A stretch of 64,000 bases of DNA from an uncultured Pseudomonadales bacterium (lineage in GTDB: Bacteria > Patescibacteriota > Microgenomatia > UBA1400 > PJMF01): assembly GCA_964449995.1 (NCBI GenBank), contig CAYVBW010000001.1:1618-65617 (forward strand), in the 5' to 3' direction. The translations under genes and the position numbers were made by a program. Below are positions 7,842-53,000 of the stretch, one piece after another. The notes under the pieces were generated by a model. That model made no database searches and had not been told where the DNA came from. It saw only the letters and a program-made list of their open reading frames with translations. The number at the start of each line of letters is the position of its first letter. The stretch's first letter is position 1.

Positions 7842-7872
7842 AAAATAACTGACAATTTTATCTAGCTAATCA

Positions 7873-9766: not shown

Positions 9767-9915
9767 AATTATTAATAGTCTCCTTTCATAGAGTTGGGAA
9801 AGTATATCATAATAACTATTTAGTATCTAGTATTTAACAGGCCTTCTTTGATATATTGAGTAAGACAAGTAATTACTTAGGTTGAAAAAAAACTACAAAC
9901 ATATCAAAAAATTAT

Positions 9916-13938: not shown

Positions 13939-13980
13939 CTATCTATATAATAAAAGAATACTATTGTTATTAAAAAACGT

Positions 13981-28652: not shown

Positions 28653-30440
28653 CTAGCCAATTTTTATGCTTTCTAACTCTTTTACCGATGTGGCCTGTTC
28701 CCAATTTTTATCATCTCTAAACTTAACTAGTCTTGGGAAACGCAAAGCCCTGCCTGCACTATGTAGTGGAGAAACTGTTAACTCATCTGCAGCAATCTCT
28801 ACCACAATTTTAGGAGACACCCAGACATCTGGCTGCAAATCTTTAGGAACATCATACTGCAGAGGTTTTTTTGAAACTTGATATTTATCAGCCTCTTTTT
28901 TAATATACTTAAACTCTTCGTCTGTTAAACCAGTGCCAATTTTAGCAATAGTCTTTAGTTTTTTTTGAGAGGATAACACACCAACTAAAAAAGCCCCAAT
29001 CCCAAATTGACTGCGCTTGCCTTTACCGCGATAGTAACCCATCACCACACAATCCAGGGTATCGCTGAGCTTACCCAATGTCCCCTCACTCTCTTTAATC
29101 TTTACCCAACGCCAACCTTTACGACCAGAACGATACTTAGAATCAATTCTTTTTATAACAGCCCCCTCTAACCCCTTTTCAAGTTGTTGTTCATGATATT
29201 GTTGAATTTCGCCAGGATCTTGAGTTTCAACTACCTCTGTAAGCTTAATTATTCCATTAATCTCAACCACGTTTTGCAAAATTTTTTTTCGATTATTTAA
29301 AGGCTCATCTATTAGTGGCTCATTATTCAAATAAAGAATATCAAACACATAAAACATTAAAGGCACCTTTTCTGACTGACTAACAACTTGATGCTTACGT
29401 TTTCTAGTAATAGTTTCCTGAAAAGTTAGCAGTTTTTTAGATTTAGGATCATAGGCAATTGCCTCAGCATCTAAAATACAATTTTGAGCCTGGATTTGGT
29501 CAATCTCTTCTAAAATCTCAGGAAACATATGGGTAACATTGTCTAAATTTCGAGTAAAAATTTGAACAGGTTTTTCCTTATCAGCTTTATTAATGTGAAT
29601 TTGGACCCTAAGCCCATCATATTTTGGCTCTATTATCACTCTGCCCATTTTTTCTACTATTTCATGCGCAGTATTAAGGCGTTGACACAAAGCGGGCATG
29701 ACAGGAATTCCCAGCGCAACTTGATAATTATCAAAAAAATCTTTAACCTCTGTTTTTGAGCTACGTTGTAAATATTCCTGAGCCAGCTGTCCAATATCAG
29801 CTCTTTTCTGATAAGCCGCTTCAATCTTCTTGCTGTCGCTTTTATTCTGATGCCTAACCCAGGACAAAGCATCAATTATGGTCATTGTTGAAAAGCCCAA
29901 GCGCAGCTTACCCACAATTATTCTGACCACAAATTTAATTGAAGCTGGCTGTAAATTTAACAGCAATTCATAGGTCTTGTTAATTTTTCTATCCTGGGAA
30001 CCTTCTCCTTCCTCATCTGCTATGTCTACCAAAATTTTGTGAACTTCTAAAATGAGCAAGTCTTTACCTAACAATTGAGTATTTTCTAGCAATTGTTCTA
30101 TAGCTAATCCCAAATCTCCTAAATCCTTATTAGCTTTTTTTATTTTTTCCAAATAAAGAGAGTCGTCTTGTTCTTTAAACAAATTAATACTAGGTAAAGA
30201 ATCATCTTGATCCAAGTGATTAAGTAGTTTGGCCAACGCCCTCATGGTTAACTTCTCACTCATATTAAACTCTAAAGATTGATAGCTTGGCACTAACTTC
30301 CCCTGCATTAAGTAACAAACTACAGGAATTTCCTCAGTTTTGAGTTCCTGAAAAAGTTGTGCCAACTGCGCAGTCATTTCCAAACGGGAAGCGGTGACTT
30401 CTAGCTTTTCCAAGTATTGAGCGAAGGTTAAAAATTTCAT
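28653..30440 (-). CDS. ATP-dependent DNA ligase
   Basis: Adenylation motif I KYDGLRVQIH (KxDGxR), motif III/IV/V region EGAVIK, OB-fold C-terminus; 595 aa. Confidence 0.85.
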   Translation of the reverse strand: MKFLTFAQYLEKLEVTASRLEMTAQLAQLFQELKTEEIPVVCYLMQGKLVPSYQSLEFNMSEKLTMRALAKLLNHLDQDDSLPSINLFKEQDDSLYLEKIKKANKDLGDLGLAIEQLLENTQLLGKDLLILEVHKILVDIADEEGEGSQDRKINKTYELLLNLQPASIKFVVRIIVGKLRLGFSTMTIIDALSWVRHQNKSDSKKIEAAYQKRADIGQLAQEYLQRSSKTEVKDFFDNYQVALGIPVMPALCQRLNTAHEIVEKMGRVIIEPKYDGLRVQIHINKADKEKPVQIFTRNLDNVTHMFPEILEEIDQIQAQNCILDAEAIAYDPKSKKLLTFQETITRKRKHQVVSQSEKVPLMFYVFDILYLNNEPLIDEPLNNRKKILQNVVEINGIIKLTEVVETQDPGEIQQYHEQQLEKGLEGAVIKRIDSKYRSGRKGWRWVKIKESEGTLGKLSDTLDCVVMGYYRGKGKRSQFGIGAFLVGVLSSQKKLKTIAKIGTGLTDEEFKYIKKEADKYQVSKKPLQYDVPKDLQPDVWVSPKIVVEIAADELTVSPLHSAGRALRFPRLVKFRDDKNWEQATSVKELESIKIG

Positions 30441-30662: not shown

Positions 30663-31763
30663 CTATTTTTCAGCCAAACTGTAGGTTACACCCTTGGTAA
30701 CTCCATGTTTTTTAACCACACCTTTTTCTAACAAATCTTTCAAGTCTCGAAGAATGGTATCAATAGAAACATTAGGTAATAAGTCTTGGGCATCACTAGA
30801 AGTAATTTCTCCTTGATCCTGAAGTAATTCTAAAATAACGATTTGTCTTTCTGACAAAGCTACTTGACGGCCCAACTCTTTTTTCATTTTCAAATCCTTT
30901 GAAAGCTTGAGAACCTTTTCTTTCACCTTATCTACCTCAACTGCCAATCCATAACAAAAATACTCCAACCAATAAGTCATGTCAGCGTTTTCATTTTGCT
31001 GAACAGATTGGAGGGCACTGTAATAACTTTCAACCGCACTGTCAAAATACTCCTCCAAAGAAAAGAATCTCTTAAAATCATAGCCAGTGGCATAAAGAAC
31101 CAATGATGTCATAGCCCGTGCAGTACGTCCATTCCCTTCAATAAAAGGATGAATGTAAACCAACTGATAATGCGTGATAGCTGCTTTAAAAATCGAATGA
31201 ATCTTTTTTGACTCAGAATGGTTAAGCCATTTGAAAAAATCTTCAACTAAGTACGGTACCTCCACCGATACCGGCGGTCTAAATACCACTTTTCCAGCTG
31301 CCTCACCTGCACCCTTAACAATAACTTGCTTACGCCGATAGTAGCCAATTTGATCCTCAATTAAAAGTTTGTTCATGGTTAAGACATGGAGATGCTTGAG
31401 AGTTTTTTCTGAAAATAAATCTGAAACATTTTTTTGACCCTGTTCGTCAATCCATTTAATTACGTTGCGATAATTCAAAACCTCCTGCACATCTCTTTCT
31501 CGAGCAATAATGCCTGCTTTTTTAGCAGCCTCCTCTGGATCATCAATCAAATCAAGTCTAGCAACTCGCTGGGCTTGATCTTGGGTTAGGTCATTACCCT
31601 CTATTTTGGTCCCAAAATGTATGGTGCGAGCCATAGCATCTTTTTTAAACTTCGCCTCCCAAGCTGGCACCAAAGGCGAGTGGTCAATTAAAGCCTTAGC
31701 AGATTCAATAGAGCTCACATAGGTAAGTAAATTGGTAGTAATTTGAAAATTTGGCTTGAACAT
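30663..31763 (-). CDS. Fic/DOC-family protein (AMPylator-type) with C-terminal winged-helix domain
   Basis: Canonical Fic motif HPFIEGNGRTAR; C-terminal wHTH-like region. Confidence 0.85.
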   Translation of the reverse strand: MFKPNFQITTNLLTYVSSIESAKALIDHSPLVPAWEAKFKKDAMARTIHFGTKIEGNDLTQDQAQRVARLDLIDDPEEAAKKAGIIARERDVQEVLNYRNVIKWIDEQGQKNVSDLFSEKTLKHLHVLTMNKLLIEDQIGYYRRKQVIVKGAGEAAGKVVFRPPVSVEVPYLVEDFFKWLNHSESKKIHSIFKAAITHYQLVYIHPFIEGNGRTARAMTSLVLYATGYDFKRFFSLEEYFDSAVESYYSALQSVQQNENADMTYWLEYFCYGLAVEVDKVKEKVLKLSKDLKMKKELGRQVALSERQIVILELLQDQGEITSSDAQDLLPNVSIDTILRDLKDLLEKGVVKKHGVTKGVTYSLAEK

Positions 31764-34627: not shown

Positions 34628-34978
34628 TTAATAGTTATTGCCAGAGCTTAAAGAGAGCCTAAATCTAAATAGTAAATAAAGCAATAAAATCTGCCAATAA
34701 ACAACAAAAATTACCAACCAGGTTGTAAAAAAGGAATAAAGAGCAAATACCAATGGAGTTTGTGGCAAAGTTAATACAGAAAGAAAAAAAGTGATCAAAG
34801 GGAAGAGAACAGCTTTAGACAAAACAATCAACAGCCCCAAAAAAATTACTGGCATCAAAGCGATCCAAATAAAAGTTTTTTGTACAACTAATATTTGCAT
34901 TGTTTGGTAGGGGTGAAGTAGTAAACCTAAAGAAAATCTAAACAAAGCATAAATATAAGACAAAATAAAGTTTTTCAT
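34628..34978 (-). CDS. hypothetical membrane protein (DUF721-position small protein after recF?)
   Basis: Hydrophobic ORF; function not determinable. Confidence 0.35.
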   Translation of the reverse strand: MKNFILSYIYALFRFSLGLLLHPYQTMQILVVQKTFIWIALMPVIFLGLLIVLSKAVLFPLITFFLSVLTLPQTPLVFALYSFFTTWLVIFVVYWQILLLYLLFRFRLSLSSGNNY

Positions 34979-34988
34979 AATTTTTTAA

Positions 34989-35237
34989 CTAAAGATATTT
35001 CAATACAAACTCAACAAACAGTGAGGTAATTAGTGAAAAAAATAGTAAAGTTTGCCAAGGATAGTAGATAATTAAGTCAATAAATTTTTCTAAATTTTTG
35101 GGTAAAGAAGAAATTTGTTCTAGATATGCCTGAGTTGCTGCTTGCTGCTGAAGCTTATCTAAAAGTTGAGATTTTTTTATTAGATCAGCATTAATAGTGG
35201 CATCGCCATGTTTTTCTAAAGAAGCTGGTTGTTTCAT
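34989..35237 (-). CDS. hypothetical small protein
   Basis: ORF only. Confidence 0.3.
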   Translation of the reverse strand: MKQPASLEKHGDATINADLIKKSQLLDKLQQQAATQAYLEQISSLPKNLEKFIDLIIYYPWQTLLFFSLITSLFVEFVLKYL

Positions 35238-35529: not shown

Positions 35530-36066
35530 CTAGTCAATAGTGGCATAAATTTCTTTAAAACTTTCCCTGGCACGATAGAGATCTGACTCAACTGATTTAA
35601 AAGTTTTACCCATAATTCTTGCGATCTGCCTCACCCCCATGCCATCCACATACTTCATCAACAATAAACTCTTTCTTCTATCCAACATCTTGTTGAGTGC
35701 TTGTTTGACTTTAAGTTCCACCTCGCTACTCTCTTGAATTTTTTCGCTGAGCAGGGACTTGCCCAACGGTAAAATCTGAATCGCTTTTTTAGCATATTTT
35801 TTACGATAATAATCAGCAATTTCATGACGTAAAACAGCCATCATCCAAGTCTTTAAGCTGGAATCGCAACGAAAAACATGAATTTTCTTTAAACAATTGA
35901 TCATGGTTTCTTGGACCACATCTTCAACGTCGCGAAAACTACCAATTTTATTTTGAGCTAAAGAGAAAAGTTGAGGATAATAATGATCAAACCAATATTT
36001 AACAGCTTGAGGATCACCGTTTTTTAATCGCTGCACCAATCTTTTTTCAGAAATTTCTTTTTGCAT
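35530..36066 (-). CDS. ECF-type sigma-70 family RNA polymerase sigma factor
   Basis: Region 2 (DVVQETMINCLKK) and region 4 HTH (GMGVRQIARIMGKTFKSVESDLYRARESF). Confidence 0.8.
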   Translation of the reverse strand: MQKEISEKRLVQRLKNGDPQAVKYWFDHYYPQLFSLAQNKIGSFRDVEDVVQETMINCLKKIHVFRCDSSLKTWMMAVLRHEIADYYRKKYAKKAIQILPLGKSLLSEKIQESSEVELKVKQALNKMLDRRKSLLLMKYVDGMGVRQIARIMGKTFKSVESDLYRARESFKEIYATID

Positions 36067-36310: not shown

Positions 36311-36697
36311 ATGTTATTATTATCAATAATTATGAGACCTTTTCTTCATTCTATTGTTAATAACCAGCTTATTTCACAGCAAAACCAAAATGAAGCAACG
36401 CCCATTAAACTCACTGATTACCTCACTCTCAGGGGAGGAGAATCAATTGCGGATGTATACGATCAACCGGCAAAAATTGTTAATTTAATTGTTAGCAATT
36501 TGTTTGTTGTAGCTGGAATTATTATCTTTTTTTTAATTATTGGAGCTGGATTTAGTTTTATTAAAGGCTCAAGCCAAGGTAAAGAAGAGGCGAAAAATCT
36601 TTTAACTGGAGCTGTTATCGGTTTTTTAATTATGTTTTCTGCCTACTGGATCATTCAAATTATTAAATTTGTGACTGGTGCAGATATACCAATTTAA
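36311..36697 (+). CDS. pilin-like two-TM protein, paralog 1 (divergent, lacks full loop motif)
   Basis: TM1-loop-TM2 architecture: ...AGIIIFFLIIGAGFSFIKGSSQGKEEAKNLLTGAVIGFLIM...; first of 7 co-oriented paralogs. Confidence 0.5.
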   Translation: MLLLSIIMRPFLHSIVNNQLISQQNQNEATPIKLTDYLTLRGGESIADVYDQPAKIVNLIVSNLFVVAGIIIFFLIIGAGFSFIKGSSQGKEEAKNLLTGAVIGFLIMFSAYWIIQIIKFVTGADIPI

Positions 36698-36748
36698 GTA
36701 AAATTAAATAATCCTGCCATGATAAATGAAGTTGGCAAATAATTTATA

Positions 36749-37333
36749 ATGAAAAAAATACCTCTTTTTTTTAAAAAAATCACACAAAACTATTCAAAGC
36801 TTTTCCTAATAGTTTTTGCACTACTATTATTTTTTTCCTCTAAGTTGTTGGTAAATGACACATTTGCTTCTGGTAATAATTGTCACTGTGTATGTGATGC
36901 GAGAGGGCGTGATTGTTCTTGGATGGGCCCAGATTGCGGATACTACCAAGGTCGTCTTTGTGAGGCGGGTGATGTGTTTGGAGAGAGTATTTTTGGCACA
37001 ATTCAGCCCCCTGCAGGAGTAAGAGAAATTCAAGAAGAAGTGGGGGCTGGAAACATTGGCATTATTTTATTTGCATCAAACCTAGTAAGACTAGTAACTG
37101 TGGCTGCAGGCATTTGGGTTATGTTTAATTTTATCTCAGCCGGGTGGATTTATATCACATCAGGCGGAGATGCCTCAGCTCACGAAAAAGTATCTGAGAA
37201 AATAACCCAGAGTCTTATAGGCTTAGCCATAGTGGCACTAGCTTATACTATTGCCGGACTTATCGGTCTTTTGATTTTTGGAGATGCCAGCTTTATTCTT
37301 AGGCCCACCTTAACCGGGGTTGGCCAATTTTAA
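36749..37333 (+). CDS. pilin-like two-TM protein, paralog 2 (signal peptide + Cys-rich N-terminal ectodomain)
   Basis: Signal peptide; CHCVCDARGRDCSWMGPDCGYYQGRLCE; core WIYITSGGDASAHEKVSEKITQSLIGLAIVALAY. Confidence 0.55.
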   Translation: MKKIPLFFKKITQNYSKLFLIVFALLLFFSSKLLVNDTFASGNNCHCVCDARGRDCSWMGPDCGYYQGRLCEAGDVFGESIFGTIQPPAGVREIQEEVGAGNIGIILFASNLVRLVTVAAGIWVMFNFISAGWIYITSGGDASAHEKVSEKITQSLIGLAIVALAYTIAGLIGLLIFGDASFILRPTLTGVGQF

Positions 37334-37344
37334 ATTAACAACTT

Positions 37345-37743
37345 ATGAATATATTTTTAAAAATTCTTAATTATTCAGTGTCATTTTCTAGTCAATTTGG
37401 TAATGGATTTCAGCCACCCACAGATGTCTATACCCAAGGCGCTGACGACAGTGGGGAGGTGGTAAATATCTTGACTAATTTTCTTTCTAATTTAATTGGT
37501 CTTCTAACAATCTTTGGGGCTCTGTTTTTCATTGTTAACTTTTTCTTAGGAGCCCTTGCTTGGATTTCAGCTGGTGATGACTCGGGTAAAGTGGAAAAAG
37601 CGAGAACAAAAATAATGCATGGAGTGTTGGGGCTGATTATAATCGTCCTTGCTTATTCAATTATCGGACTTATTGGACAAATTATTGGCATTGACTTAAT
37701 TAATTTAGGAGAAACAATAGAGCAGGTTGTACCAACTTTATAA
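37345..37743 (+). CDS. pilin-like two-TM protein, paralog 3
   Basis: Core LAWISAGDDSGKVEKARTKIMHGVLGLIIIVLAY. Confidence 0.55.
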   Translation: MNIFLKILNYSVSFSSQFGNGFQPPTDVYTQGADDSGEVVNILTNFLSNLIGLLTIFGALFFIVNFFLGALAWISAGDDSGKVEKARTKIMHGVLGLIIIVLAYSIIGLIGQIIGIDLINLGETIEQVVPTL

Positions 37744-37781
37744 AAATGTAAAATTTAAATAATGCTTAATAATATACAAAT

Positions 37782-38216
37782 ATGACACAACACTTTTCTA
37801 TTTTAAATAAATTAATTACCAAACCAATCCAAGCAAGCAATGGCAGGCTTTTTAATCCCGTTATTGGAAGGTTAGGAGATGACCCTGACGCAGCCAGCAC
37901 AGGTAATTTGTTTTTAACTTATGCTATTCATCTGTGGAGAATAGCAATTAATATCGGAGCCTTAATAGTTTTGGCTTTTTACATAGTTGCCGCCTATGAG
38001 TGGCTAACCAGCGGCAGCGACACTCAAGGAGTTGAAAAAGCGCGCAAAAGATTTGTGAACGCCACCATTGGTTTGATTTTATTGGTGGGGTCTTTTGCCA
38101 TCATAGCCTTTATCAGCAATTTATTGTTTGGTGAAGACTTTAATTTACTACACTTAACCTTCCCAGTTGGCCAAAGCACAGCGCCAACAACACCAATTCA
38201 TAATACTGGGATATAA
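37782..38216 (+). CDS. pilin-like two-TM protein, paralog 4
   Basis: Core YEWLTSGSDTQGVEKARKRFVNATIGLILLVGSF. Confidence 0.55.
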   Translation: MTQHFSILNKLITKPIQASNGRLFNPVIGRLGDDPDAASTGNLFLTYAIHLWRIAINIGALIVLAFYIVAAYEWLTSGSDTQGVEKARKRFVNATIGLILLVGSFAIIAFISNLLFGEDFNLLHLTFPVGQSTAPTTPIHNTGI

Positions 38217-38260
38217 CTAAAAAATCAGCTTAATTTTTTCAAAAAAAAGAAAAAAATAAC

Positions 38261-38635
38261 ATGACAAGCAAAACCACAAACTCATTAGCCTCAATTGAGT
38301 TTGATATCGGTCAAGAAGGCAGAGAACAACTCCCTTTTGGTGAAACTGTGGTCACAGAAGGTGGTGGAGCCAGCGCTGTTTCCAGCTTCATCAGCAACTT
38401 ATTAAGAATAAGCATTGTTGTTGCTGCCCTCATTCTTCTCTTTAATTTAATTTTTGCCGGTTTTGAATGGCTTTCTTCTGGAGGAGATAGCAGTAAAATT
38501 GAAAAAGCGCGCACCAGAATGACTCAGTCAATTATTGGCTTTGTAATACTATTTGCCGTAATTGCTATCTTTACTTTCATCCAAGATTTACTTGGGATAA
38601 ACGTTATTACCTTTACCACTGAAGGTGGTGGTTAA
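38261..38635 (+). CDS. pilin-like two-TM protein, paralog 5
   Basis: Core FEWLSSGGDSSKIEKARTRMTQSIIGFVILFAVI. Confidence 0.55.
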   Translation: MTSKTTNSLASIEFDIGQEGREQLPFGETVVTEGGGASAVSSFISNLLRISIVVAALILLFNLIFAGFEWLSSGGDSSKIEKARTRMTQSIIGFVILFAVIAIFTFIQDLLGINVITFTTEGGG

Positions 38636-38807
38636 CCCATTCCGCCTCCAGAGGGTGGGGGTGGAGGAGAAGTAAGACCTCCAGTATATAAATTTTAAAT
38701 AAATTTAAAATAGAAATTAAAAGCCCTATTTTGACATTTATTTTAAAAACCTGATACAATATCAACAACAATTATCAATAATCATCAAATTAATTAAAGG
38801 AGAAAAA

Positions 38808-39209
38808 ATGAATAAAATTAAACAAATTGCTATAGGAGCCGGATCAGCCATTAGCGGAGCGTTGCTGACCGTCAATCCAGTTTTGGCTCAAGAAACCGAA
38901 GTTAAGGTTGAAGTACCCGATGCCTTTGATATAAGTGTGGGCGATCTTTTAACAACTCTTTTGAATTTAGTTTTAGTCATAGCTGCAATTTTGGTTTTTG
39001 CCTACTTGATTTGGGGTGGAATTGAGTGGATTACCTCTGGTGGTGATAAGAGCAAAACAGAGTCAGCCAGAAATAAAATCACAGCTGCCATTGTAGGGCT
39101 GGTGGTTTTGGTTGCCTCCTATGCCATCTTGCAATTAGTCTTGCAAATCCTTGGGATTCAAGGTGGGTTTGAGGGTATGCTTAACTTTGCTACCATAGGT
39201 GCAAAATAA
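38808..39209 (+). CDS. pilin-like two-TM protein, paralog 6 (clear Sec signal peptide ...VLAQE)
   Basis: Strong RBS-like AAAGGAGAAAAA upstream; core IEWITSGGDKSKTESARNKITAAIVGLVVLVASY. Confidence 0.6.
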   Translation: MNKIKQIAIGAGSAISGALLTVNPVLAQETEVKVEVPDAFDISVGDLLTTLLNLVLVIAAILVFAYLIWGGIEWITSGGDKSKTESARNKITAAIVGLVVLVASYAILQLVLQILGIQGGFEGMLNFATIGAK

Positions 39210-39233
39210 TGTCCTTTTAAATAAGCACACAAC

Positions 39234-39266
39234 AAAAAAAACCCTCTGTTAAAGAGGGTTTTTTAA
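39234..39266 (+). terminator. rho-independent terminator after pilin paralog 6
   Basis: AAAAAAACCCTCTGTTAAAGAGGGTTTTTT: 7-bp GC-containing stem, 5-nt loop, T-run. Confidence 0.7.
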
Positions 39267-39354
39267 TAAATTACAGCCGACTTTCCCATTTTTGCTTAAA
39301 AAATAATATAATAAGTCATTAATAAATAATTTGATACATCAGCACTCCTAATTT

Positions 39355-39807
39355 ATGAAAAAAATCATTAAATTTATTAAAATCTTTTGTTTTTTTGCTA
39401 TTATTTTTTTTGTCAGCACCAACAAAACCTTTGCCCAAACCAGAGTTTGGGAAAGTATTAATCAACATTGTGTTGTTGATGGCGTTGCCACTATCCAGGG
39501 TGTATCTTGCTTGATTGCTAATGTTTTATCAGTTGCTCTCACAGTCATTGGTCTGGCTGGATTCATCATGCTAATAGTTGGCTCCTTAAAATGGCTCTTG
39601 TCAGGAGGCAGCTCTCAAAATGTAGACAGCGCTAAAAAAACCATGACTTATGCCGTGGTTGGACTGGTAGTAGCGCTTAGCTCATTTATGATAATCAATC
39701 TAATTGCTCAGTTTACTGGAGTCAATGTTATTACTGAGTTCTTTATTCCTGGAAGCGATACCGGTCTTGAGGGAGGTCCACAATGGGAAGATGTGGGTCG
39801 ACTGTAG
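39355..39807 (+). CDS. pilin-like two-TM protein, paralog 7 (signal peptide, two Cys in ectodomain)
   Basis: Signal peptide ...TFAQT; core LKWLLSGGSSQNVDSAKKTMTYAVVGLVVALSSF. Confidence 0.55.
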   Translation: MKKIIKFIKIFCFFAIIFFVSTNKTFAQTRVWESINQHCVVDGVATIQGVSCLIANVLSVALTVIGLAGFIMLIVGSLKWLLSGGSSQNVDSAKKTMTYAVVGLVVALSSFMIINLIAQFTGVNVITEFFIPGSDTGLEGGPQWEDVGRL

Positions 39808-39856: not shown

Positions 39857-40555
39857 CTACTTTCCAAACCTGCGAATTCTTCCTTGATAGTCTTTTAGTG
39901 CCTTGTCCAACTCCTTGATATCAAAATCAGGCATTAGTACTTTTGTAAAATACAACTCTGAATAAACACTTTGCCAAGGCATAAAGCCTGACAATCTTTG
40001 CTCCCCACCGGTCCTAATTATTAAATCCGGATCAGGAATTCCCTTAGTATCCAAGTATTGCTCAAGCTCATCCGCCCCCAACTGCTCAAGACTCAGTCCA
40101 GCAGCAACCGCCTGCCTAACTGCTCTTACTATCTCATCCCTGCCCCCATAGTTTAAGGCAAAGGTGACAGTAATTTTATAATCTTTTTTATTAATTTCTT
40201 TAAACCGATTAACACTTTCTTGAATATCCTGAGGAAACCGACTCAAATCACCAATTGTTTTCACCCTCACCTTCTCTTTTACCATCTCATCAAAGCCCTC
40301 ACTAAAAGAGAGACGCATCAAGTCCATAATTGCCTCAACCTCAGCCTTATCTCTTTGCCAATTCTCAGTACTAAAAGCCCACAAAGTTAAAAAAGGAATC
40401 CCCAGAGAAATGCAGTGTCGAGTAAGATCTTCAATATTTTCTCGAGCAACTTTCTCATGACCCTTAAAAATCTTAAGCTTGTTTTGTCTAGCCCAACGGC
40501 GATTACCATCCATAATAATAGCGATGTGTTGAGGAAGAGAATTGGTCTTTTTCAT
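39857..40555 (-). CDS. uppS: undecaprenyl/isoprenyl diphosphate synthase (cis-prenyltransferase)
   Basis: HIAIIMDGNRRWA catalytic motif, RTGGEQRLSGF C-terminal motif. Confidence 0.9.
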   Translation of the reverse strand: MKKTNSLPQHIAIIMDGNRRWARQNKLKIFKGHEKVARENIEDLTRHCISLGIPFLTLWAFSTENWQRDKAEVEAIMDLMRLSFSEGFDEMVKEKVRVKTIGDLSRFPQDIQESVNRFKEINKKDYKITVTFALNYGGRDEIVRAVRQAVAAGLSLEQLGADELEQYLDTKGIPDPDLIIRTGGEQRLSGFMPWQSVYSELYFTKVLMPDFDIKELDKALKDYQGRIRRFGK

Positions 40556-40566
40556 AATTTAAAGGC

Positions 40567-41364
40567 TTAAGCTGTTATTTTAGTACCCTTAACTGACTTG
40601 CCACCAATAGCATCAGATAAAGTACCATGAACAATTCCGTCAATAATTAGGCCAGGAATGCCTTGTTTTGCTAATAACAAAGTCTCCTCGACTTTATGCA
40701 ACATACCTCCTGTTACATCTGTCCCGCCTGACCCACCCAAATTTTGGCGGTATTGTCCAATATTCTTACCATTGATTTCTTTAATAGTTTTACCATCAGC
40801 ATCATAAACTCCACTTGTTTGCCCACATTGAATAATTTGTTCAACACGATAATCCTTGGCTTTTAAAGCCAGTCCCAAATACGCAAGCACTTTCTCAGTA
40901 GAAAAAATTGTGCATCCCATCTTTTCATCCAGGATTTGATCGCCATATACAACTGGCAGTAAGCCTTGGGTCAAAAGCAACTCAATCGATTTGGTAAAAA
41001 TATCTGACAGCTTGTGCTCACTAGCCACCATACTGCTTAGAGGAGAAACAGAAACCGCATTAATCTTTTCTTTTAAAAATTTTTTTATCACAATGCGATT
41101 TAGCCTTGCTGCCACGTCTGACACTTCAGCAATCCCGCGATAACTCTGTTTATTAATAATTCCCTTGTGGGTTTGATATTTTTTTGCTGGCACATGTGCA
41201 AAAGAGCCCGCACCATGACCAATTATTAACAATTTCCCCATATTAACAGCTTTTTTTACCTCTGAGGCAATAATATCCAAAGCTTCTTCGTTTACAGTAA
41301 AGGGCTTGTTTTTGTCTGTAATAAGGGAGCCCCCGATTTTAATTAAGATTATTGGTTTATGCAT
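40567..41364 (-). CDS. isopentenyl phosphate kinase (amino-acid-kinase fold)
   Basis: IILIKIGGSLITDK N-terminal glycine-rich AAK motif, HGAGSFAH, C-terminal GGM region; genomic context inside mevalonate operon. Confidence 0.65.
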   Translation of the reverse strand: MHKPIILIKIGGSLITDKNKPFTVNEEALDIIASEVKKAVNMGKLLIIGHGAGSFAHVPAKKYQTHKGIINKQSYRGIAEVSDVAARLNRIVIKKFLKEKINAVSVSPLSSMVASEHKLSDIFTKSIELLLTQGLLPVVYGDQILDEKMGCTIFSTEKVLAYLGLALKAKDYRVEQIIQCGQTSGVYDADGKTIKEINGKNIGQYRQNLGGSGGTDVTGGMLHKVEETLLLAKQGIPGLIIDGIVHGTLSDAIGGKSVKGTKITA

Positions 41365-41908
41365 AGTTTGCCAAATTTTGTTTGATATTTTTTTGTGACA
41401 AGATAATACTCACCCATGGGGCAAAATTGCTCGCTGCTGTTAATAGTTGCTTAAATTGAATCCACCCAACCTCAGACACCTCATCTGGATTTGGCTTAAG
41501 CTCCCCCTTAAAATCCCCAACAAAAACTGTGTCTATTTCATTCTCACTAAAGCCATTGTCAAAACTTACTTGGTATTGAAACTTACCAACTTTACTCAAC
41601 CCTACCCCCTCAATACCTAACTCCTCTTTTAATCGGCGCTTAGCACAATCTAAGTAACTTTCGCCAGGCCGAACATTTCCGCATGCAGTGTTAGCCCACT
41701 GATTGGCTGCCACTATTTTTTTCTTACTTCGTTTTTGAATTAGAACTTCACCTGTAGCATTAAACAAAAAAACACTGCAGGCTCGATGTAATTTACCTAA
41801 GCCCTTATGCGTCTCAATAACATTTTCTGACCCAATCACCTCATCATCTGCATTAACTAGCACAACCCGATCAAGCTTTTGATAAATTTTATTGTTTGTG
41901 CTGTTCAT
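41357..41908 (-). CDS. idi: isopentenyl-diphosphate delta-isomerase, type 1 (Nudix fold)
   Basis: HRACSVFLFN...NTACGNVRPGESYLDCAKRRLKEELGI contains catalytic Cys and Nudix-like GE...RR..EELG box. Confidence 0.7.
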   Translation of the reverse strand: MNSTNNKIYQKLDRVVLVNADDEVIGSENVIETHKGLGKLHRACSVFLFNATGEVLIQKRSKKKIVAANQWANTACGNVRPGESYLDCAKRRLKEELGIEGVGLSKVGKFQYQVSFDNGFSENEIDTVFVGDFKGELKPNPDEVSEVGWIQFKQLLTAASNFAPWVSIILSQKNIKQNLANYA

Positions 41909-41948
41909 AATTTTTAAAACCGCCCCTATTTAACAAGGCTAAAAAAAC

Positions 41949-42245
41949 TCATGCTTGCTTAACTTTTTTTACTTTAAGCTGATATTCTAATGGATCAGAA
42001 TCATTTTTTTTAGAACCTTTTCTTAACACACACCTAACCTTATCCCCTATCTCCAGCCTTTGATGACCAACTCCCATTAACTCTTTCCTATTTTTCCCAA
42101 AGGCTACAATTGCCAAAGAATAGGGAGCCGCCCTCAAGTGCTCACTGCCAGCAACCCTAATATAGGTGCTTACCACAACCTGTCCAGTTTTGCCCAAAAA
42201 ACTCTTCCATTGTTTATTGAGTCTTGTGTATTTAGCCGGATGCAT
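41949..42245 (-). CDS. DUF35-family OB-fold protein (thiolase/HMG-CoA synthase scaffold partner)
   Basis: 98-aa OB-fold-sized ORF immediately downstream of thiolase and HMGCS as in archaeal thiolase/HMGCS/DUF35 complexes. Confidence 0.55.
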   Translation of the reverse strand: MHPAKYTRLNKQWKSFLGKTGQVVVSTYIRVAGSEHLRAAPYSLAIVAFGKNRKELMGVGHQRLEIGDKVRCVLRKGSKKNDSDPLEYQLKVKKVKQA

Positions 42246-42281
42246 AATTTTATTTTATATTAATTGAATAATATTAAATTG

Positions 42282-43388
42282 CTAGCCAACTACATGAACT
42301 ACAGCTGTAGCTCCAGATCCTCCCACGTTATGGGCCAAGCCTAATTTATAACGCTCATCCTCAATTTGCTGAGCTAAATAAACAACCTGTTTGATGCCGG
42401 TAGCACCGATTGGATGACCAAATGCTTTTAAACCACCTGATAAGTTAATCACAACTTTTCCATTCAATTTTGTTTCGTGGTTGAGCGTAGCCCGACCACC
42501 CATTCCTTTGTCAAAAAAACCCAAGTCCTCGATCGCCAAAATCTCTGCAATAGTAAAACAATCGTGAACCTCTGCCAACTGTATTTGATCTGGCCTAACA
42601 TCAGCCATCTGATAAGACTTTTGTGCTGCTTGCACCGTTGCTCTCAAGGTAGTTAAATCTTTTCTACTAGCTAAGTCCAAAGCATCTTGAGCATGACCAA
42701 AACCTAAAATTTTGGGCTTATTTTTCATCTTGCGGCCTGTTAGTATCACAGCTGAAGCCCCGTCTGAAATTGGCGAGCAATCTAGCAATCTAAGAGGATC
42801 TGCCACTAAAGGACTTTGTGAGACTTGATCTAAAGTAAATTCTCGATGAAATTGAGCCAAAGGGTTCTCCAAGGCATGTGTGTGATTTTTTACAGCTACA
42901 GCAGACAGCATTTCCCTAGATGTTTTAAACTTTTCTGTATGCACTTGGGCCAGTAAGGCATACAAGCCAGGGAAAGTTGAGCCATTTTCAGCATCATGAT
43001 TAGCTGCCATAGCAAGAATTCGGGTGGCATTGCTCGCAGTTGTATCTGTCATCTTTTCGGCCCCAACTACCAAAGCAGTTTGACAATACCCTGACAAAAT
43101 CGCCTGTTCTGCAGCCAATAAAGCCAACCCCCCAGAAGCGCAAGCTCCCTCCACTCTCATGCTGGGAGGAAAATGATTAAAAAACTGACTTACCAAAGCA
43201 TTGAGATGAAGTTGATTGTTAAATTCTCCAGGGGCTTTGCTGGCAACAAAAACTTGGTCTATTTGTCTAGAATCAATACCAGCATTTTTAACAGAACCCC
43301 CAATTGCTTCTTGAAACAAATCAGCCAACCCTTTTTCCCAGAGTTCTCCGACCTTAGTTGTATGATGACCCGCAATAGTAATTTGCAT
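42282..43388 (-). CDS. acetyl-CoA C-acetyltransferase (archaeal-type thiolase)
   Basis: Thiolase fold with active-site Cys region VEGACASGGLALL, C-terminal GHPIGATG and NVGGSGA motifs. Confidence 0.8.
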   Translation of the reverse strand: MQITIAGHHTTKVGELWEKGLADLFQEAIGGSVKNAGIDSRQIDQVFVASKAPGEFNNQLHLNALVSQFFNHFPPSMRVEGACASGGLALLAAEQAILSGYCQTALVVGAEKMTDTTASNATRILAMAANHDAENGSTFPGLYALLAQVHTEKFKTSREMLSAVAVKNHTHALENPLAQFHREFTLDQVSQSPLVADPLRLLDCSPISDGASAVILTGRKMKNKPKILGFGHAQDALDLASRKDLTTLRATVQAAQKSYQMADVRPDQIQLAEVHDCFTIAEILAIEDLGFFDKGMGGRATLNHETKLNGKVVINLSGGLKAFGHPIGATGIKQVVYLAQQIEDERYKLGLAHNVGGSGATAVVHVVG

Positions 43389-43413
43389 TGTATTTAACCT
43401 AGCTAAAAACTAA

Positions 43414-44484
43414 TCAGTGATACCTGTCTTTTGTAAGTCTGGCATACTGCTGATAACTAATTGGTTGTAAATTTTTAATTTTGTCTAAAGTAAAATCCTG
43501 CCATTTTTTTCTCTGCTTGGGCAAATTATCGGTAGTCTCAAAAACAAAACTATCTGCTCCAGCACCAGAGCCATAGGCTGTTACAAAAATCTTTTTTCCG
43601 GCTGGAGCTTGGTCTAAAATAGCTGCCAAAGCCAAGGGCACACTCCCAGCATAAGTATTGCCTACCTTTTTTACAATCAAACCCGGCTTAAGTTGTTTTG
43701 AAGAAAATCCCAACTGCTTGGCAGCTTGTAGGGGAAATTTGCCATTGGGTGTATGAAAAACACAGTAATCAAAGTCTTCAGCCTTAAGTTTCATTTCTTT
43801 TAAAAGCATTTTGCTGGATTTAATCACATGATAAAAATAAGCTGGCTTACCAGTGAATCTTCCTCCGTGGTGAGGAAAATCCTCCCCGGACTTTCTCCAA
43901 AAATCAGGGGTGTCGCTAGCAACTGATGAAGTTGCCAATAATTTCACCAGCAGGTTGGTAGAACCAAAAATAAAAGCTGCAGCCCCAGCTGCAGCAGTGT
44001 ACTCCAGCGCATCTCCTGGCTTGGCCTGAGCTACATCTGCCCCAATAGCCAAGGCATATTTAGCAAAGTCACTTAAAATATAGCTAGCACAAATCTGCAT
44101 TCCCTGAGTCCCTGCCTTGCAGGCAAATTGCAAATCCGCCATGGCCAATTCTTCTGGCAAGCCCAACGCGCCCGCAACCACAGAACCTGAGGGCTTAACT
44201 GCATAGGGATGACTTTCACTACCAACAAACAAAGCACTAATTTTTTTACTACCAAAATTTTTAGTAATCCCGGCTCTAGCTAGAGCTTGCCAGGCTGCTG
44301 AAGTTGAAAGAGTGATTGTGTCCTCATCAAAATCTGGCACTGTTTTTTGCTCAACCAACAAAGAATTACTCACTGTACCGATCTCTTTGTTGTGAGCCAT
44401 TTCCAACTCTTTTATAGACAAAGACCAGCTTGGCAACTCGGTGCCATAAGCCACAATTCCCACTGGTTTATTAATCACTGGCAT
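43414..44484 (-). CDS. hydroxymethylglutaryl-CoA synthase (archaeal/short type)
   Basis: Initiation-condensing-enzyme fold; ADLQFACKAGTQGM catalytic Cys region; TAYGSGAGADSFVFE C-terminal motif. Confidence 0.8.
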   Translation of the reverse strand: MPVINKPVGIVAYGTELPSWSLSIKELEMAHNKEIGTVSNSLLVEQKTVPDFDEDTITLSTSAAWQALARAGITKNFGSKKISALFVGSESHPYAVKPSGSVVAGALGLPEELAMADLQFACKAGTQGMQICASYILSDFAKYALAIGADVAQAKPGDALEYTAAAGAAAFIFGSTNLLVKLLATSSVASDTPDFWRKSGEDFPHHGGRFTGKPAYFYHVIKSSKMLLKEMKLKAEDFDYCVFHTPNGKFPLQAAKQLGFSSKQLKPGLIVKKVGNTYAGSVPLALAAILDQAPAGKKIFVTAYGSGAGADSFVFETTDNLPKQRKKWQDFTLDKIKNLQPISYQQYARLTKDRYH

Positions 44485-44544
44485 AATCTTTTAATTTTTA
44501 TTTAATGTATATTTTTTAATAATTTGCTAAAAATTTCCCCAAGC

Positions 44545-45852
44545 CTATCTAGCCAGTTTCTGATGAGCGCAGGCCAAGCTTTGCGTAGCTAAAGCAGCCA
44601 GTCCAGATAGCTCCCCAGACAAAACCGCAACCGCCACAACACCTGCTAGCTCTTCGGCCCTAATCTCCCTACCAAAGATTAATTTTCGAGCTTGCTGGAA
44701 TGGAGTTAAGCCACTTCCTCCTCCAACCACTCCGACATTAACATTAGGCATATTTAGTGCGACATAAAGCGAATTATTAGGCTTTTGTTCAACCAACAGA
44801 CTAGCCTGAGAACACTCAACAACATGAGCCATATCTTGGCCTGTAGCCAAAAATAGTCCGGCAACCATGTTGGCAGCATGCATGTTTAAAGAATCTGCCC
44901 CAGCTAAATTGGAGCCAACAACATTTTTCCAATAATAAGTTTTATAAAAATCCTGTACGCCAACTTTTAATACAGACTGTAAAATTTTTTTATTCAACAG
45001 GACCTCAGCCTGAACACTGTATCCCCTGCCCAACAAACGATTAATTGCAGAAGTTTTTTTATCAACACACATATTCCCAGACAAAGAGATTAATTCTATG
45101 TTGGGATATGAGGAAATTACTTCTTTCCAAGCTTGACCCAGCGCTAAGGTCACCATATTCATACCCATGGCCTGGTCAGTGTCAAAAACAAAGCGAGCAT
45201 AAACCGCCCTACCAACAACCCAAGCATGACAATCCTTTAACTTTAAATGCTGGCTGGTCTTTTCACATACTTGCTTAATTTTTTTTAAACCACCCTTATT
45301 TTCTATCCAATCCACAAATTCCTTTGCCTCAAAATGATTAAGAAAGCCAAAAACAGGGGCTCTAGTCATACCTATTTTTTCAACAAATACTCGCGTTGGT
45401 TTGGTTTTACTTAAAGCCTTCATGCCCCTGGCAACACTAGCAACCAAAGCTCCTTCTGTGGTAGCCAGCGGGATAAACAGTTCTTGTTGGAACGGTTCAC
45501 CGCCATCAATTGTCATCTGCACAGAAGCTGGACCAGCCACCCCCACAGGTATCTCCACACTACCCAACAAATTTTCGCAGTTTTTTTGTTCAGCCTGCTT
45601 TACATCTATTTTGTTAATCTTAAAAAAATTAGAAAAATCAAGTTGATCGGTAGTCCCACTTCCCCCATCCTTCTTATGCATAAATTTTCTTCTCTTTAGA
45701 TAATCAATCAAGATAGCCTGACGTTGCAAAATTTTTTCTTGAGAAGATCCTACGAAGTTTTTTAAATTAAGACTGATCATAAATTTTGTTTCTTTCCACA
45801 AAAACCAACACCCTGTTTGAAGGGCAATAAATATAGTCGTGTTTTGTGCCAA
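44545..45852 (-). CDS. hydroxymethylglutaryl-CoA reductase
   Basis: EIPVGVAGP, TTEGALVAS, DAMGMNMV and GTVGG-like motifs diagnostic of HMGR; real start probably an internal Met. Confidence 0.85.
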   Translation of the reverse strand: MAQNTTIFIALQTGCWFLWKETKFMISLNLKNFVGSSQEKILQRQAILIDYLKRRKFMHKKDGGSGTTDQLDFSNFFKINKIDVKQAEQKNCENLLGSVEIPVGVAGPASVQMTIDGGEPFQQELFIPLATTEGALVASVARGMKALSKTKPTRVFVEKIGMTRAPVFGFLNHFEAKEFVDWIENKGGLKKIKQVCEKTSQHLKLKDCHAWVVGRAVYARFVFDTDQAMGMNMVTLALGQAWKEVISSYPNIELISLSGNMCVDKKTSAINRLLGRGYSVQAEVLLNKKILQSVLKVGVQDFYKTYYWKNVVGSNLAGADSLNMHAANMVAGLFLATGQDMAHVVECSQASLLVEQKPNNSLYVALNMPNVNVGVVGGGSGLTPFQQARKLIFGREIRAEELAGVVAVAVLSGELSGLAALATQSLACAHQKLAR

Positions 45853-48188: not shown

Positions 48189-48295
48189 ATTCTGATTAAA
48201 TACCCGCCAACCTTTCTTGCTAAGCGGGGCTGAGGGGCGAAACCCCTCAGAAATGAGCTCATATCTATTACTAATACTAATTTGAGAATTTATTT
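48189..48295 (-). repeat. copy C (short, inverted orientation) of multi-hairpin repeat family
   Basis: Reverse complement AAATAAATTCTCAAATTAGTATTAGTAATAGATATGAGCTCATTTCTGAGGGGTTTCGCCCCTCAG CCCCGCTTAGCAAGAAAGGTTGGCGGG TATTTAATCAGAAT. Confidence 0.7.
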
Positions 48296-48827
48296 AATGA
48301 CCATTTGGACCAAAACGAACACCACTCCGAATAAGACAAAACCAAACAAAATAACAGGAGTTCTTTCAGCTAAATTTTTTAAACTAAAACTAATTACTTC
48401 TCTACTTTTTTTTATTTTTTTTCTCTTTCTATCTCTATTAGCCGAGTCGGCCAAAAATTTTAAAGTATTAATTTTTCTGTATATTTTTTTGTTTATCCAG
48501 GCGCTTCTAATAATATTTTTTCCCAAAAAGCCAGCCCACACAAACCAAAACCAAGATAAATTTTATGAGACCACGACACAAGTCATGGATTTGAGCTCAA
48601 CAAAAACATATTCAATTAACTTTAGCCAAGAAAGTATTCAAGAAGAACTAAAAAAATACCAAGAAAATTTTTTTACAAAGACAGCGCCAGACTCCCCCAC
48701 CAATGTTGCGCGAGACTATCTTATTAACACAGCGCTGCTAAATTTAGCCACCTCACAGGAATCTGAATACCAAAGACTTATCAAACAGGCAAAAGAACTT
48801 GATCCTAATTGGGAGGGTTGGAGGTAG
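48282..48827 (+). CDS. hypothetical membrane protein (annotated 5' end overlaps repeat copy C; true start probably internal)
   Basis: ORF only; Asn/Lys/Phe-rich. Confidence 0.3.
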   Translation: MRIYLMTIWTKTNTTPNKTKPNKITGVLSAKFFKLKLITSLLFFIFFLFLSLLAESAKNFKVLIFLYIFLFIQALLIIFFPKKPAHTNQNQDKFYETTTQVMDLSSTKTYSINFSQESIQEELKKYQENFFTKTAPDSPTNVARDYLINTALLNLATSQESEYQRLIKQAKELDPNWEGWR

Positions 48828-50081: not shown

Positions 50082-53000
50082 TTATAGATGATGCTCTTCA
50101 AATCCAATAATAATAAAGCTGCTACCCACATCGCTAGTTATTACTACCTGATTTTGATTCACTTCTGCTTGGGGAGAAACAACTTTTGCCTCCCAGTCAT
50201 GAGGAAACTTTAGGCTAATTACCGTAGGTCTCTGTTTTAAACCAGCTTGCAATTGATCATAAAAGAAATAGGCACCCCCCGGCTTTAATTCATGAGGGAC
50301 AGAGTAGTAAAATAACAAATCTAAGCTTTCCATTGGCCCAACTTCAAGCACAGTTGCATAAACCTTTCTATTGTGATCAATATAAGAAACTATTTTATCC
50401 TCTGTTAACAACTCCCCATCTACAAGTAGCTGCTCAAGCTCTGCCTCTGGGTTTACAAAAAATCTTAAGTAAAATCTATAAGAACCAAGTGGCCAAGTGC
50501 TAGATCTAGCCTTATTAGTAAACTTTATTTGACGTTGATGGATTATTTGTTCTTCTTGTATCTCTATTTTGTGCGACACGCTTTGGTTTATATAGGGATT
50601 GATTTTGTTTACTCCAATATTTGCCTCTACTTGAAAAGAGTGATCAACATGACAAGATTCACCAAACCCGCCCGGACAATCCGGATGAGAGATCCTTCCA
50701 GACCAATTTAGTTGATCCATAACTGCTCCAGCCCCCAGATCGTTCAGATAAATCAAAGACTGTTGATTTTTAAACGATGAATAAAGAGTTTCAAGTAGCT
50801 GGACAACTTGTTCGTCACTCAAAGATCCTAATTGGTTAAGGATGCTTTTGAGCAAACCAACCTGAAATGCGCCAGCCCTCTCTTGGTCCCCTTCTTCCAA
50901 AAGAATTAATTCCAGCCTATTGTATAAATTCCAGGCATCAACAGTCTCAGTATACCCATCAACTTCAATTTCTCCGATTACCACTAAAACATCCCTGATT
51001 AAGCCATAATTAACTCCCAATATCCCATCTACGGGTTGACCCAGAGCTTCATTCGCAAACCACGATATTTTTTGTGATGTTAACTGAAAATCGGGATCCC
51101 AGTTAACATCCCTAAAATACAGGCTGTCTTCTCCTAAAAACGAAGCAACCTCTGCAGGAGCAGCAATTCTACCAAAAACACGACCATCAACTTCGTTGGT
51201 GCTTAAAAATTGAGTCTCTAGCACTTTCCCGTTTTCTATTTGAATCATGGCAATTGCCTGAACAAATCCTCCCGTTGGCCTCAGCTCTCGGTCGTCCTGT
51301 AGTAAAATATAAAAGGTTTGTTTTTGTTCAAACCCCAATAAACTCATTAATAGTGGGTTTAATTGCTGCGAAGCTGAATTCTTTGACCTAATATCTTTCA
51401 GCTCAAAACGGGCTCTGGCAAGATTATTTTGTAAATCATTTTCAAAAACATTATCTGTTATGTTATCCAGCTCAGCCTGTAGAAGAGAGGCCTTTTCAAA
51501 TATGGATTTATCCACAGAATCCTTTTTTTTCAACAACTCCTCCATGGAAAAACCCTCAATATCCCGATCTTTGCTTGCAAAGAAATTTTTAAAAACTTGT
51601 ACCGACATTTGTTGTGAACTAAGCATTTCATCATGAAGAGATAATACATGATCATTAATACGGTTTAGTGTCAGGCTTTTTTCTATCAAATAGATGTCTA
51701 AAAACTTATCTAACAATAGTGCTTTGGTTTTTAAACCATGAGTTTTCTTAAAGTCTCCAGATCGACCTTCAATTAAGAGGTTTAGATTGTTGGCCAAAAT
51801 TTGCTGTGATTGTCTAAAGCTTAAGGACAACAAGCCCAAAAAAACAAAAAATATTATCCCCAGTAAAAAAAGACAAGCCCCCGCAATAAAAACCACCTGT
51901 TTGCGCTTACTTTTGGTTTTGATTCTTCCAATTATCTTGGCTTTCGAAGATCTTCTTTGAACTTTTTGCTTAGTTCTACTCTTTGTAAACAACTTATTGA
52001 TTTGATTGTTAATTGAGTTTGGGGGTAGGCTAGAAAAATTTTCTTGATCCCCTTCTTTGTAGTGATTTGCGTTATCACCCCCCTCACCTCGAGATATGTT
52101 GGTCGCGGAATCCTTCTGCTTTTGAATAAAATGTCCCCTATTATTTGACTGCTGATCTTGTTTTGCCTGAAATTCCTGTAGGACAGCCTTATTGTTTGAC
52201 AAGTCATGGTTTAAAAAGCCACCATCTATTACCTGTTCGGCCCCTACCTGATTTGTTTTGTTGGCTTGGGGTAAAAAGTTGACAGTTTTTAACTGAGGTT
52301 GGTTGTCTAACAACTCTTTTATTAACACTGGATCTAATCCCAGTTTCTTATTTGGCAAAACACCACACAAGTTTTCAAAAAAATTTCCCGGAAGTTCTCC
52401 TGCCACAACTCTGACCAAATCTTGTTTTTTTTCTAAACGAGTCAAGGAATTGGTATTTAATCTTATTATTTCTAAATTTTTAGAATAATAAGACTGATAC
52501 ATCAATCTTATTTTTTCACAAACGTCACTTGTTATAATCGACTTGCCTCGTACCACAAAATTCTTTTTCTCAGGACGTAAAATCTCCTTTTTTATTGTAT
52601 TAAAAAAATTCTCATCAAGTTGTAAATAAATCTTTAAGCCAAAATCAATTAAATAACCATTTGGGATAGCCTCCACTATATTTTTTAAAGGATATAAAAG
52701 AGGTTCCTCAAGACTAATTGAGTCTTGGGCTATTAATAGCTTTTTGTGTTTAGAATTTATATATAGGTAGTTGAGCAATTCGTCTTCGTTTTTACATTGA
52801 TAATTCCACTCGCTAAAAAGGGGAGAGGAACTATCAATCTTGCTAGAAATTTTAAACAAATATACTTGTGAAATTTTATAATCGTCTAAAAGATCTGATA
52901 GTTTTTTATAAAACTCAATACTTTTTTTATCTCGAATTTCTAAGGGATTTATTATTACAACTACCTTGTAGGGCTGCTGTTCATTTAAAATTGTCAGCAA

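Follow-up and report, generated by a model that had tools for sequence, protein, structure and literature searches.

The seven small tandem genes at 36311-39807 on the forward strand of the DNA analysed here, a 64,000-nucleotide stretch of the metagenomic contig CAYVBW010000001.1 (hereafter the window), are read, with a probability of about 0.6, as the pilin module of a relaxase-less, Gram-positive-type (MPF-FATA-like) chromosomal type IV secretion system (T4SS). In this reading gene 6 would supply the major subunit and the other six genes specialised subunits of a pilus-like or conduit-like assembly. Such T4SSs are widespread in Patescibacteria, and the window comes from the chromosome of a Microgenomates-like member of that group. 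Judged from sequence comparison, the seven genes belong to as many ancient orthologous groups, kept in a fixed order, and are not interchangeable copies.

The array consists of seven co-oriented, consecutive open reading frames (ORFs) of 128 (36311-36697), 194 (36749-37333), 132 (37345-37743), 144 (37782-38216), 124 (38261-38635), 133 (38808-39209) and 150 (39355-39807) amino acids (aa), referred to as genes or paralogs 1 to 7. The coordinates, strand and lengths (124-194 aa) match those given in an earlier description made from the letters of the window alone (the sequence-only reading), and each of the seven core strings quoted there is present verbatim in the translations. The same seven genes were predicted on identical public contigs by an independent gene caller. 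No eighth copy was detected when a hidden Markov model (HMM) of the seven was searched against the six-frame translation of the window. Pairs of paralogs share 19-43% local identity, with 3 invariant columns in a global alignment, and the regions outside the two-helix hairpin that they have in common are not alignable between paralogs.

The evidence for orthology comes from related genomes. Using an alignment of gene 6, 80 loci from different species-level genomes were collected and scanned with the seven-paralog HMM, and each match was assigned to the nearest window paralog; positional comparisons were made on 32 complete seven-gene arrays plus the window (n = 33, 231 proteins). The best cross-genome BLAST match was found at the same array position for 231 of 231 proteins, and mean identity was 47-60% within a position as against 26-50% between positions. 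Nearly all complete loci are built on the order 1-2-3-4-5-6-7; where they depart from it, they mostly have one more type-2 copy behind gene 2 or one more type-6-like copy ahead of gene 7. The closest distinct orthologue shares 82% protein identity and the others 45-63%, and synonymous sites are likely saturated at such distances. The surroundings of the array are also kept, with a divergent extracytoplasmic function (ECF) sigma factor gene directly upstream in 56 of the 80 loci and uppS, recF and nnrD nearby in 47, 37 and 33 of them, respectively.

These comparisons bear on a suggestion made in the sequence-only reading, that the copies form a pilin or adhesin variation repertoire. Alternative copies would then broaden host range or evade recognition, as has been proposed for Bartonella trwL and Anaplasma virB2. 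The low identity between copies and their unalignable extra-hairpin regions would fit such a repertoire, as would the extra type-2 or type-6 copies of some lineages and a lineage-specific Cys-rich insert in window paralog 2. One-to-one positional orthology in a fixed order, however, argues against a fast-diversifying repertoire, and each orthologous group is marked by conserved motifs of its own, immediately ahead of the first transmembrane (TM) helix and in the C-terminal tail. The ectodomains are therefore hypervariable between paralogs, as had been proposed, but not within the orthologous groups. Furthermore, orthologue identity is similar to that of the neighbouring housekeeping genes, the proteins of which are roughly 50-70% identical to those of the window in the best-matching loci. 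No DNA-level similarity, repeats or gene-conversion tracts were found between the seven copies, and no signs of switching elements were seen. The array is nucleotide-identical in three independent metagenome assemblies, a comparison of low power as these show only 2-9 differences in 10-20 kb. The repertoire suggestion was thus not borne out, and is considered improbable.

Membership of a pilin family was determined at two levels. PF18895 (T4SS_pilin, gathering score 26.6 bits) was the top Pfam match for all seven paralogs, with E values of 1.3e-8 to 2.5e-4, and the resemblance is therefore not due to chance. Paralogs 3 (28.9 bits), 5 (32.5), 6 (35.2) and 7 (33.7) score at or above the cut-off; paralog 4 (26.2 bits) falls 0.4 bits under it, followed by paralogs 1 (24.4) and 2 (21.5), for all of which it is still the top match. 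In profile-profile comparison of alignments of the 33 orthologues per array position, hhalign joined all seven groups with probabilities of 95-100% (E values of 2e-8 to 7e-39). Group 4 was linked to groups 3, 5 and 6 at 99.8%, group 1 to other groups at 95-98% and group 2 to group 3 at 99.7%, which ties the weak scorers 1 and 2 to the rest and shows that both belong to the family. PF18895 also matched 27 of 27 gene-6 orthologues, and gene 6 has 777 homologues, of which the 120 listed are all PF18895. The assignment of the array to a T4SS pilin family, as originally made, is upheld by these results. The best NCBIfam match for six of the seven paralogs was NF045849 (Mbov_0395, a pilin-like protein of Mycoplasma integrative and conjugative elements, ICEs), in each case below cut-off, the strongest being paralog 5 (E = 6e-8). 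CagC was matched by 4 of the 27 gene-6 orthologues. A tblastn search of gene 6 against 72,556 plasmids returned no match, and a sequence search of the PDB with the gene-6 profile gave chance matches only (CD20 at E = 0.07).

It could be argued that the seven are unrelated two-TM membrane proteins, either holin-like or serving in envelope stress under the ECF sigma factor, and have no role in a T4SS. Hydrophobic hairpins do draw spurious HMM matches, the gene conserved beside the array encodes an ECF sigma factor, and the array is remote from the secretion genes, lying ~19.5 kb (~20 genes) from virB4 in the window, with no VirB4, VirD4 or PrgI gene within 8 kb of any array in the 80 loci. Yet PF18895 is consistently the top match, and the orthologues also touch TrbC/VirB2 and CagC. 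In addition, a homologous series in Saccharibacteria forms part of the T4SS cluster and has been found essential (PMC10633639). A holin or other small phage membrane protein was rejected as PHROGs gave no holin or other annotated phage family, only one weak match, for paralog 3, to a family of unknown function; the flanks of the array are housekeeping genes and show no phage context. A set of proteins unrelated to secretion is thus regarded as highly improbable.

All seven proteins have two hydrophobic TM helices in a Kyte-Doolittle scan and none has a single helix, in agreement with the two-TM hairpin described in the sequence-only reading. An extra N-terminal signal-like segment was detected by the same scan in paralogs 2 and 7. 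Paralogs 2, 6 and 7 begin with Sec-type signals having A-x-A↓Q sites that are conserved in orthologues, in line with the signal peptides noted earlier for several paralogs; that of paralog 7 ends FA↓QT and that of paralog 6, which is weaker, ends VLA↓QE. In the AlphaFold model of paralog 6, residues 4-21 form a helix and are followed by a helical hairpin (44-76 and 81-114) with confidence values (pLDDT) >90. The N-terminal regions of paralogs 1, 3, 4 and 5 are 40-55 aa long and lack a clear hydrophobic core. The loop connecting the two helices is short and mostly basic (SGGDxxKxExAR-K), and in gene 6 the motif GGIEWITSGGDKxKTExARNK is nearly invariant among orthologues. By the positive-inside rule, the loop would be in the cytoplasm and both termini outside. 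A type IV pilus or type II secretion system (T2SS) pilin was considered and rejected, as the class III signal (G↓F/M-xxx-E) is absent from all seven translations and each protein has two helices.

Cysteine content differs from what was first described, namely two Cys-rich ectodomains. Paralog 2 has 6 Cys and a Cys-rich insert at approximately residues 40-75 (36866-36975); its segment NNCHCVCDARGRDCSWMGPDCGYYQGRLCEAGD is an insertion missing from its 32 orthologues, and appears from this alignment to be a lineage-specific extracellular addition. Paralog 7 has just two Cys, conserved in 97% and 61% of its orthologue sequences, so the description stands for paralog 2 only.

The distribution of expression signals sets one gene apart, as only gene 6 carries a conserved promoter, Shine-Dalgarno site and terminator. 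In the window it is preceded by a sigma-70-like promoter (38731-38760, forward strand; TTGACA-18-TACAAT with an extended TG, an 11/12 match) and by AAAGGAG before the ATG at 38808, and is followed by an intrinsic terminator at 39236-39264 (CCCTCT-GTTAA-AGAGGG then TTTTTT), which is palindromic with an A-run and a T-run on its two sides and is given no strand. The strong terminator reported after paralog 6 in the sequence-only reading is thereby confirmed. A promoter of at least 10/12 occurs upstream of gene 6 in 27 of 33 genomes, and upstream of the other six genes in 0-10 of 33 (gene 1, 3/33; gene 7, 2/33; genes 2-5, 0-10/33). A Shine-Dalgarno-like site precedes gene 6 in 31/33 genomes, and a GC-stem hairpin with a T-run follows it in 29/33, compared to 0-2/33 for any other array gene. 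Median intergenic gaps are 4-30 nucleotides (nt) within the tightly packed block that gene 1 opens and gene 5 closes, 83 nt between genes 5 and 6, and 92 nt between genes 6 and 7. Genes 1-5 probably form one operon beside the divergent ECF sigma gene, and gene 7, before which there is a promoter-like site (39283-39312, 10/12), is its own transcription unit. Having its own strong promoter, ribosome-binding site, Sec signal and terminator, as well as the highest cross-genome identity, gene 6 most likely supplies the abundant (major) subunit, the low-abundance specialised subunits most likely being the products of genes 1-5 and 7.

The secretion genes expected to serve such subunits are found elsewhere in the window, all on the reverse strand. 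A VirB4-type T4SS ATPase is encoded at 59279-61375, next to dnaA (NF045971, CD1110 family, 373 bits against a cut-off of 325; P-loop_TraG and AAA_10), and also matches the Mycoplasma ICE ATPase family Mbov_0397 (254 bits, below cut-off). The neighbouring TraC-like/TrsD-like gene (61317-62651) encodes a protein resembling the VirB4 N-terminal domain (NF041427 TrsD, E = 2.7e-7; a precomputed match to PF26593, TraC-like; VirB4_plasma at residues 98-281, E = 5e-10). The gene for a PrgI/VirB3-like membrane protein (62779-63801; PF12666, 29.7 bits against a cut-off of 27), which has a C-terminal CarboxypepD_reg-like domain, directly adjoins dnaA. A VirD4-like (coupling-protein-like) ATPase is located at 20876-23209 (TrwB_AAD_bind, 34.3 bits against a cut-off of 20.5; TraG-D_C weak; NF045973, CD1115 VirD4-like, E = 3e-11 but below cut-off). 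The VirB4-like, PrgI/VirB3-like and VirD4-like genes named in the sequence-only reading are therefore all present, and the four genes are spread over the window as expected of the chromosomally dispersed T4SS proposed there. On an identical contig from another sample (691-9947 of that sequence, past window position 64000), two more genes of the T4SS operon were found upstream of PrgI, one for a bitopic protein of 333 aa and the other for a protein of 1269 aa with a weak M23 peptidase match. Near this operon is a polytopic protein of 549 aa with a signal peptide and ~6 TM segments, a candidate VirB6-like channel subunit. None of these three proteins has a confident Pfam assignment. A 181-aa ORF within the window (48282-48827, forward strand), with no Pfam match, weakly resembles (E = 0.0026) the first 120 residues of the VirB4 family of Mycoplasma ICEs; it could be a small T4SS-associated membrane protein, or the match could be due to chance.

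That the window is chromosomal is seen from the end of a 23S rRNA gene, tRNAs, dnaA, dnaN, rnpA and yidC. A mevalonate-pathway cluster is also present, as are pth, recF, uppS and a gene for an ATP-dependent DNA ligase. Paralog 6 has its closest homologues in metagenome-assembled genomes that bear the names Pacebacteria, Woesebacteria and Microgenomates, all of them Patescibacteria, a group now called Minisyncoccota.

From these parts we infer a division of labour between subunits that are assembled together into a filament with a role in host interaction. Each product would have a leader or signal peptide followed by two membrane helices and a short loop, and genes 1-5 and 7 would have roles such as initiation, tip, base or adaptor. 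The VirB4/TraC-like/PrgI machine encoded by dnaA would pull the subunits out of the membrane and build from them a pilus-like or conduit-like structure across the envelope, for host-cell contact or exchange. The heteropolymeric filament raised as an alternative in the sequence-only reading is the version favoured here. Tentatively, and at somewhat less than even odds, this would be a complex T4SS appendage of seven non-redundant VirB2-like subunits, the order and transcription of which were fixed before the sampled Microgenomates-like lineages diverged.

The main rival to a pilin module is that the products stay embedded in the membrane, the seven two-helix proteins building the channel or a short stalk of the T4SS, in which they may replace the polytopic VirB6. 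Seven non-redundant conserved subunits would fit a complex of fixed stoichiometry equally well, and in NCBIfam they come nearest to a pilin-like protein of Mycoplasma ICEs, elements for which we know of no described pilus. Gram-positive-type T4SSs are also generally without a pilus, and VirB6 homologues are reported to be scarce in Microgenomatia (PMC12102498). Against this, a monocistronic gene 6 with promoter and terminator suggests a large excess of one subunit, as is typical of polymers, the same organism has a candidate polytopic VirB6-like protein (the 549-aa protein) near its T4SS operon, and three of the paralogs have Sec signal peptides like exported pilins. A channel or stalk is considered unlikely, though more probable than the other alternatives.

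The pilin module reading has itself to be set against several results that weigh against it. Direct homology to classical VirB2/TrbC is, by sequence, only marginal: PF04956 (TrbC/VirB2) was matched at E <= 0.01 by only 10 of the 27 gene-6 orthologues (best 8.2e-6), and hhalign of the seven groups against eight genuine VirB2 proteins was not significant (group 1, 22.7%; the rest <5%), a weak negative as these eight come from Ti-type and related plasmids and make a narrow profile (alphaproteobacterial MPF-T only). The fold match of the hairpin to solved conjugative pilins is likewise non-specific. No published filament was found for any PF18895 member, and the family name "T4SS_pilin" is an annotation. 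Paralogs 1, 3, 4 and 5 are without an obvious Sec signal peptide and their topology is deduced from charge only. As regards gene 6, its cross-genome identity, the highest of the seven at 60%, is partly an ascertainment effect as the loci were found via gene-6 motifs. The promoter consensus is borrowed from model bacteria and may not be that of Patescibacteria, and the start codons of the other genes were approximated, which makes their Shine-Dalgarno counts lower bounds.

Arrays of this kind, their abundance in Microgenomatia and the presence of T4SS genes by dnaA have already been published (PMC12102498, PMC10633639, PMC12857230). A search of 3,035 Patescibacteria genomes with PF18895, PF04956 and other profiles identified 441 arrays, each made up of 2-11 VirB2-like genes, in 383 assemblies, particularly of Microgenomatia and Saccharimonadia, with a mean identity of 25% and a maximum of 54% (PMC12102498). 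In the same study T4SS genes were located near dnaA/dnaN/rnpA and relaxases were generally lacking, a pilin variation or host-range idea was suggested for Patescibacteria, and it was left open whether the pilin-like gene had been co-opted from a diderm T4SS (PMC12102498). In Southlakia epibionticum (Saccharibacteria), the T4SS cluster includes the pilin series, which is essential (PMC10633639), and the possibility of a pilus in a monoderm is raised in the cited literature. The seven-group positional orthology and the promoter and terminator specific to gene 6 are added here, and were not found stated in the published accounts consulted.

The nearest known systems are these VirB2-like arrays of Patescibacteria (S. 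epibionticum ML1 SEML1_0006-0019; Nanosynbacter lyticus TM7x), which belong to the same PF18895 family and share with the window tandem, co-oriented, divergent two-helix paralogs and a chromosomal Gram-positive-type T4SS with VirB4/TrsD/PrgI near dnaA. They differ in that the window array is placed between the ECF sigma gene and uppS, outside the T4SS cluster, and that the window has a VirD4-like gene, none being recognised in S. epibionticum. Classical VirB2/TrbC/TraA pilins are also small, with a leader ending A-x-A↓Q, two helices and a short polar or basic loop, and depend on a VirB4-type ATPase, as the window pilins presumably do. They are, however, usually encoded by one gene per system and their sequence relation to the window pilins is marginal; the loop in the window is longer, with the conserved SGGD...AR-K, and the host is a monoderm. 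Bartonella trwL (Trw system) and the Anaplasma virB2 paralogs are likewise runs of VirB2-type genes within a single T4SS, but those are lineage-specific amplifications thought to diversify the surface (as described in PMC12102498), whereas the window copies are ancient and of fixed order. Mbov_0395 of Mycoplasma ICEs is, unlike the window array, a single gene on a mobile element. Taken together with the Mbov_0397 match of the window VirB4, it hints that the pilin-like gene and the ATPase share an MPF-FATA-type ancestry. Type IV pili and T2SS pseudopili offer an analogy only, in having one abundant and several conserved low-abundance subunits encoded together; they are not homologous, with a single N-terminal helix in place of the hairpin. 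To our knowledge there is no characterised T4SS with more than one VirB2 plus VirB5.

Were the array to encode such a seven-subunit appendage, a minor-pilin logic would have arisen separately from that of type IV pili, and in monoderms of a lineage believed to be without T4SS pili. The Mycoplasma ICE matches also hint that the pilin-like gene came with MPF-FATA-type machinery and was not co-opted from diderm systems. A large part of all uncultivated bacteria are Patescibacteria, and the one genetically tractable species among them cannot grow on its host without the T4SS and the pilin series. The window holds no new kind of system, but the comparative result sharpens the open question of what these pilins build: seven ordered subunits, one of them with high-expression signals, point to a heteromeric structure and away from antigenic variation. 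The gene-6 orthologues provide a concrete target for detection by antibody, cryo-electron tomography or proteomics.

The ECF-type sigma factor gene (35530-36066, reverse strand; Sigma70_r2, r4_2 and ECF domains) is divergent from pilin gene 1, and we infer that it may control that gene. A k-mer search of the intergenic region between the two genes gave no shared ECF-type promoter, only a generic TATAAT(A) in 26 of 32 regions. Just past the sigma gene is a 116-aa ORF (34628-35237 region, reverse strand) conserved in 29 loci, and between the two is an 82-aa ORF with a C-terminal hydrophobic segment, which could be an anti-sigma factor.

Several further observations concern the related loci. In ~10 related genomes, a pair of larger ORFs (~120-430 aa, stop-to-stop) was found 2-5 kb upstream of the array (L021 3343-4925, L041 3-1753, L049 644-2307, L052 1425-3378, L060 1-1616, L078 2-1597 and L080 1-1007). 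These match the seven-paralog HMM at E <= 1e-5 and single window paralogs only weakly (BLAST 30-56 bits), and may be pilin-domain fusion proteins; they have no counterpart in the window. Full Microgenomates-type synteny (nnrD-recF-ECF sigma-seven pilins-uppS) is present in CP011212.1 (L044), and DASPLQ010000012.1 (L072) has eight pilin-family matches with an ECF sigma gene beside the array. Most of the loci titled "uncultured Pseudomonadales bacterium" also carry the array, with isolate names such as HK-STAS-PATE pointing to Patescibacteria, and the TM6, Vitreimonas and Pseudomonadales titles of array-bearing loci are probably taxonomic mislabels.

Immediately downstream of the array (39857-45852, reverse strand) is a contiguous isoprenoid cluster including UppS, thiolase, 3-hydroxy-3-methylglutaryl coenzyme A (HMG-CoA) synthase and HMG-CoA reductase, together with an amino-acid-kinase-family protein (possibly isopentenyl phosphate kinase) and a NUDIX-type protein (possibly IDI). 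The cluster resembles a mevalonate-type pathway, here found in a bacterium, and UppS and an IDI-like gene are next to the array in ~47 of 80 related loci. Two candidate large surface proteins are encoded in the window, one of 1711 aa with four LamG-like domains, a glycine-rich domain and DUF2341 (1403-6538, forward strand) and a DUF4012 protein of 1024 aa (50082-53156, reverse strand). The ATP-dependent (archaeal/eukaryotic-type) DNA ligase (28653-30440, reverse strand) has all three domains and is followed by a Fic/DOC protein with a DeoR-type helix-turn-helix (30663-31763, reverse strand). Lastly, a tRNA-Ile with the anticodon TAT (UAU) is encoded at 13865-13939 on the forward strand. In most bacteria AUA is read by a lysidine-modified CAU tRNA, and the genomic UAU tRNA-Ile suggests a different way of decoding AUA in this reduced genome.

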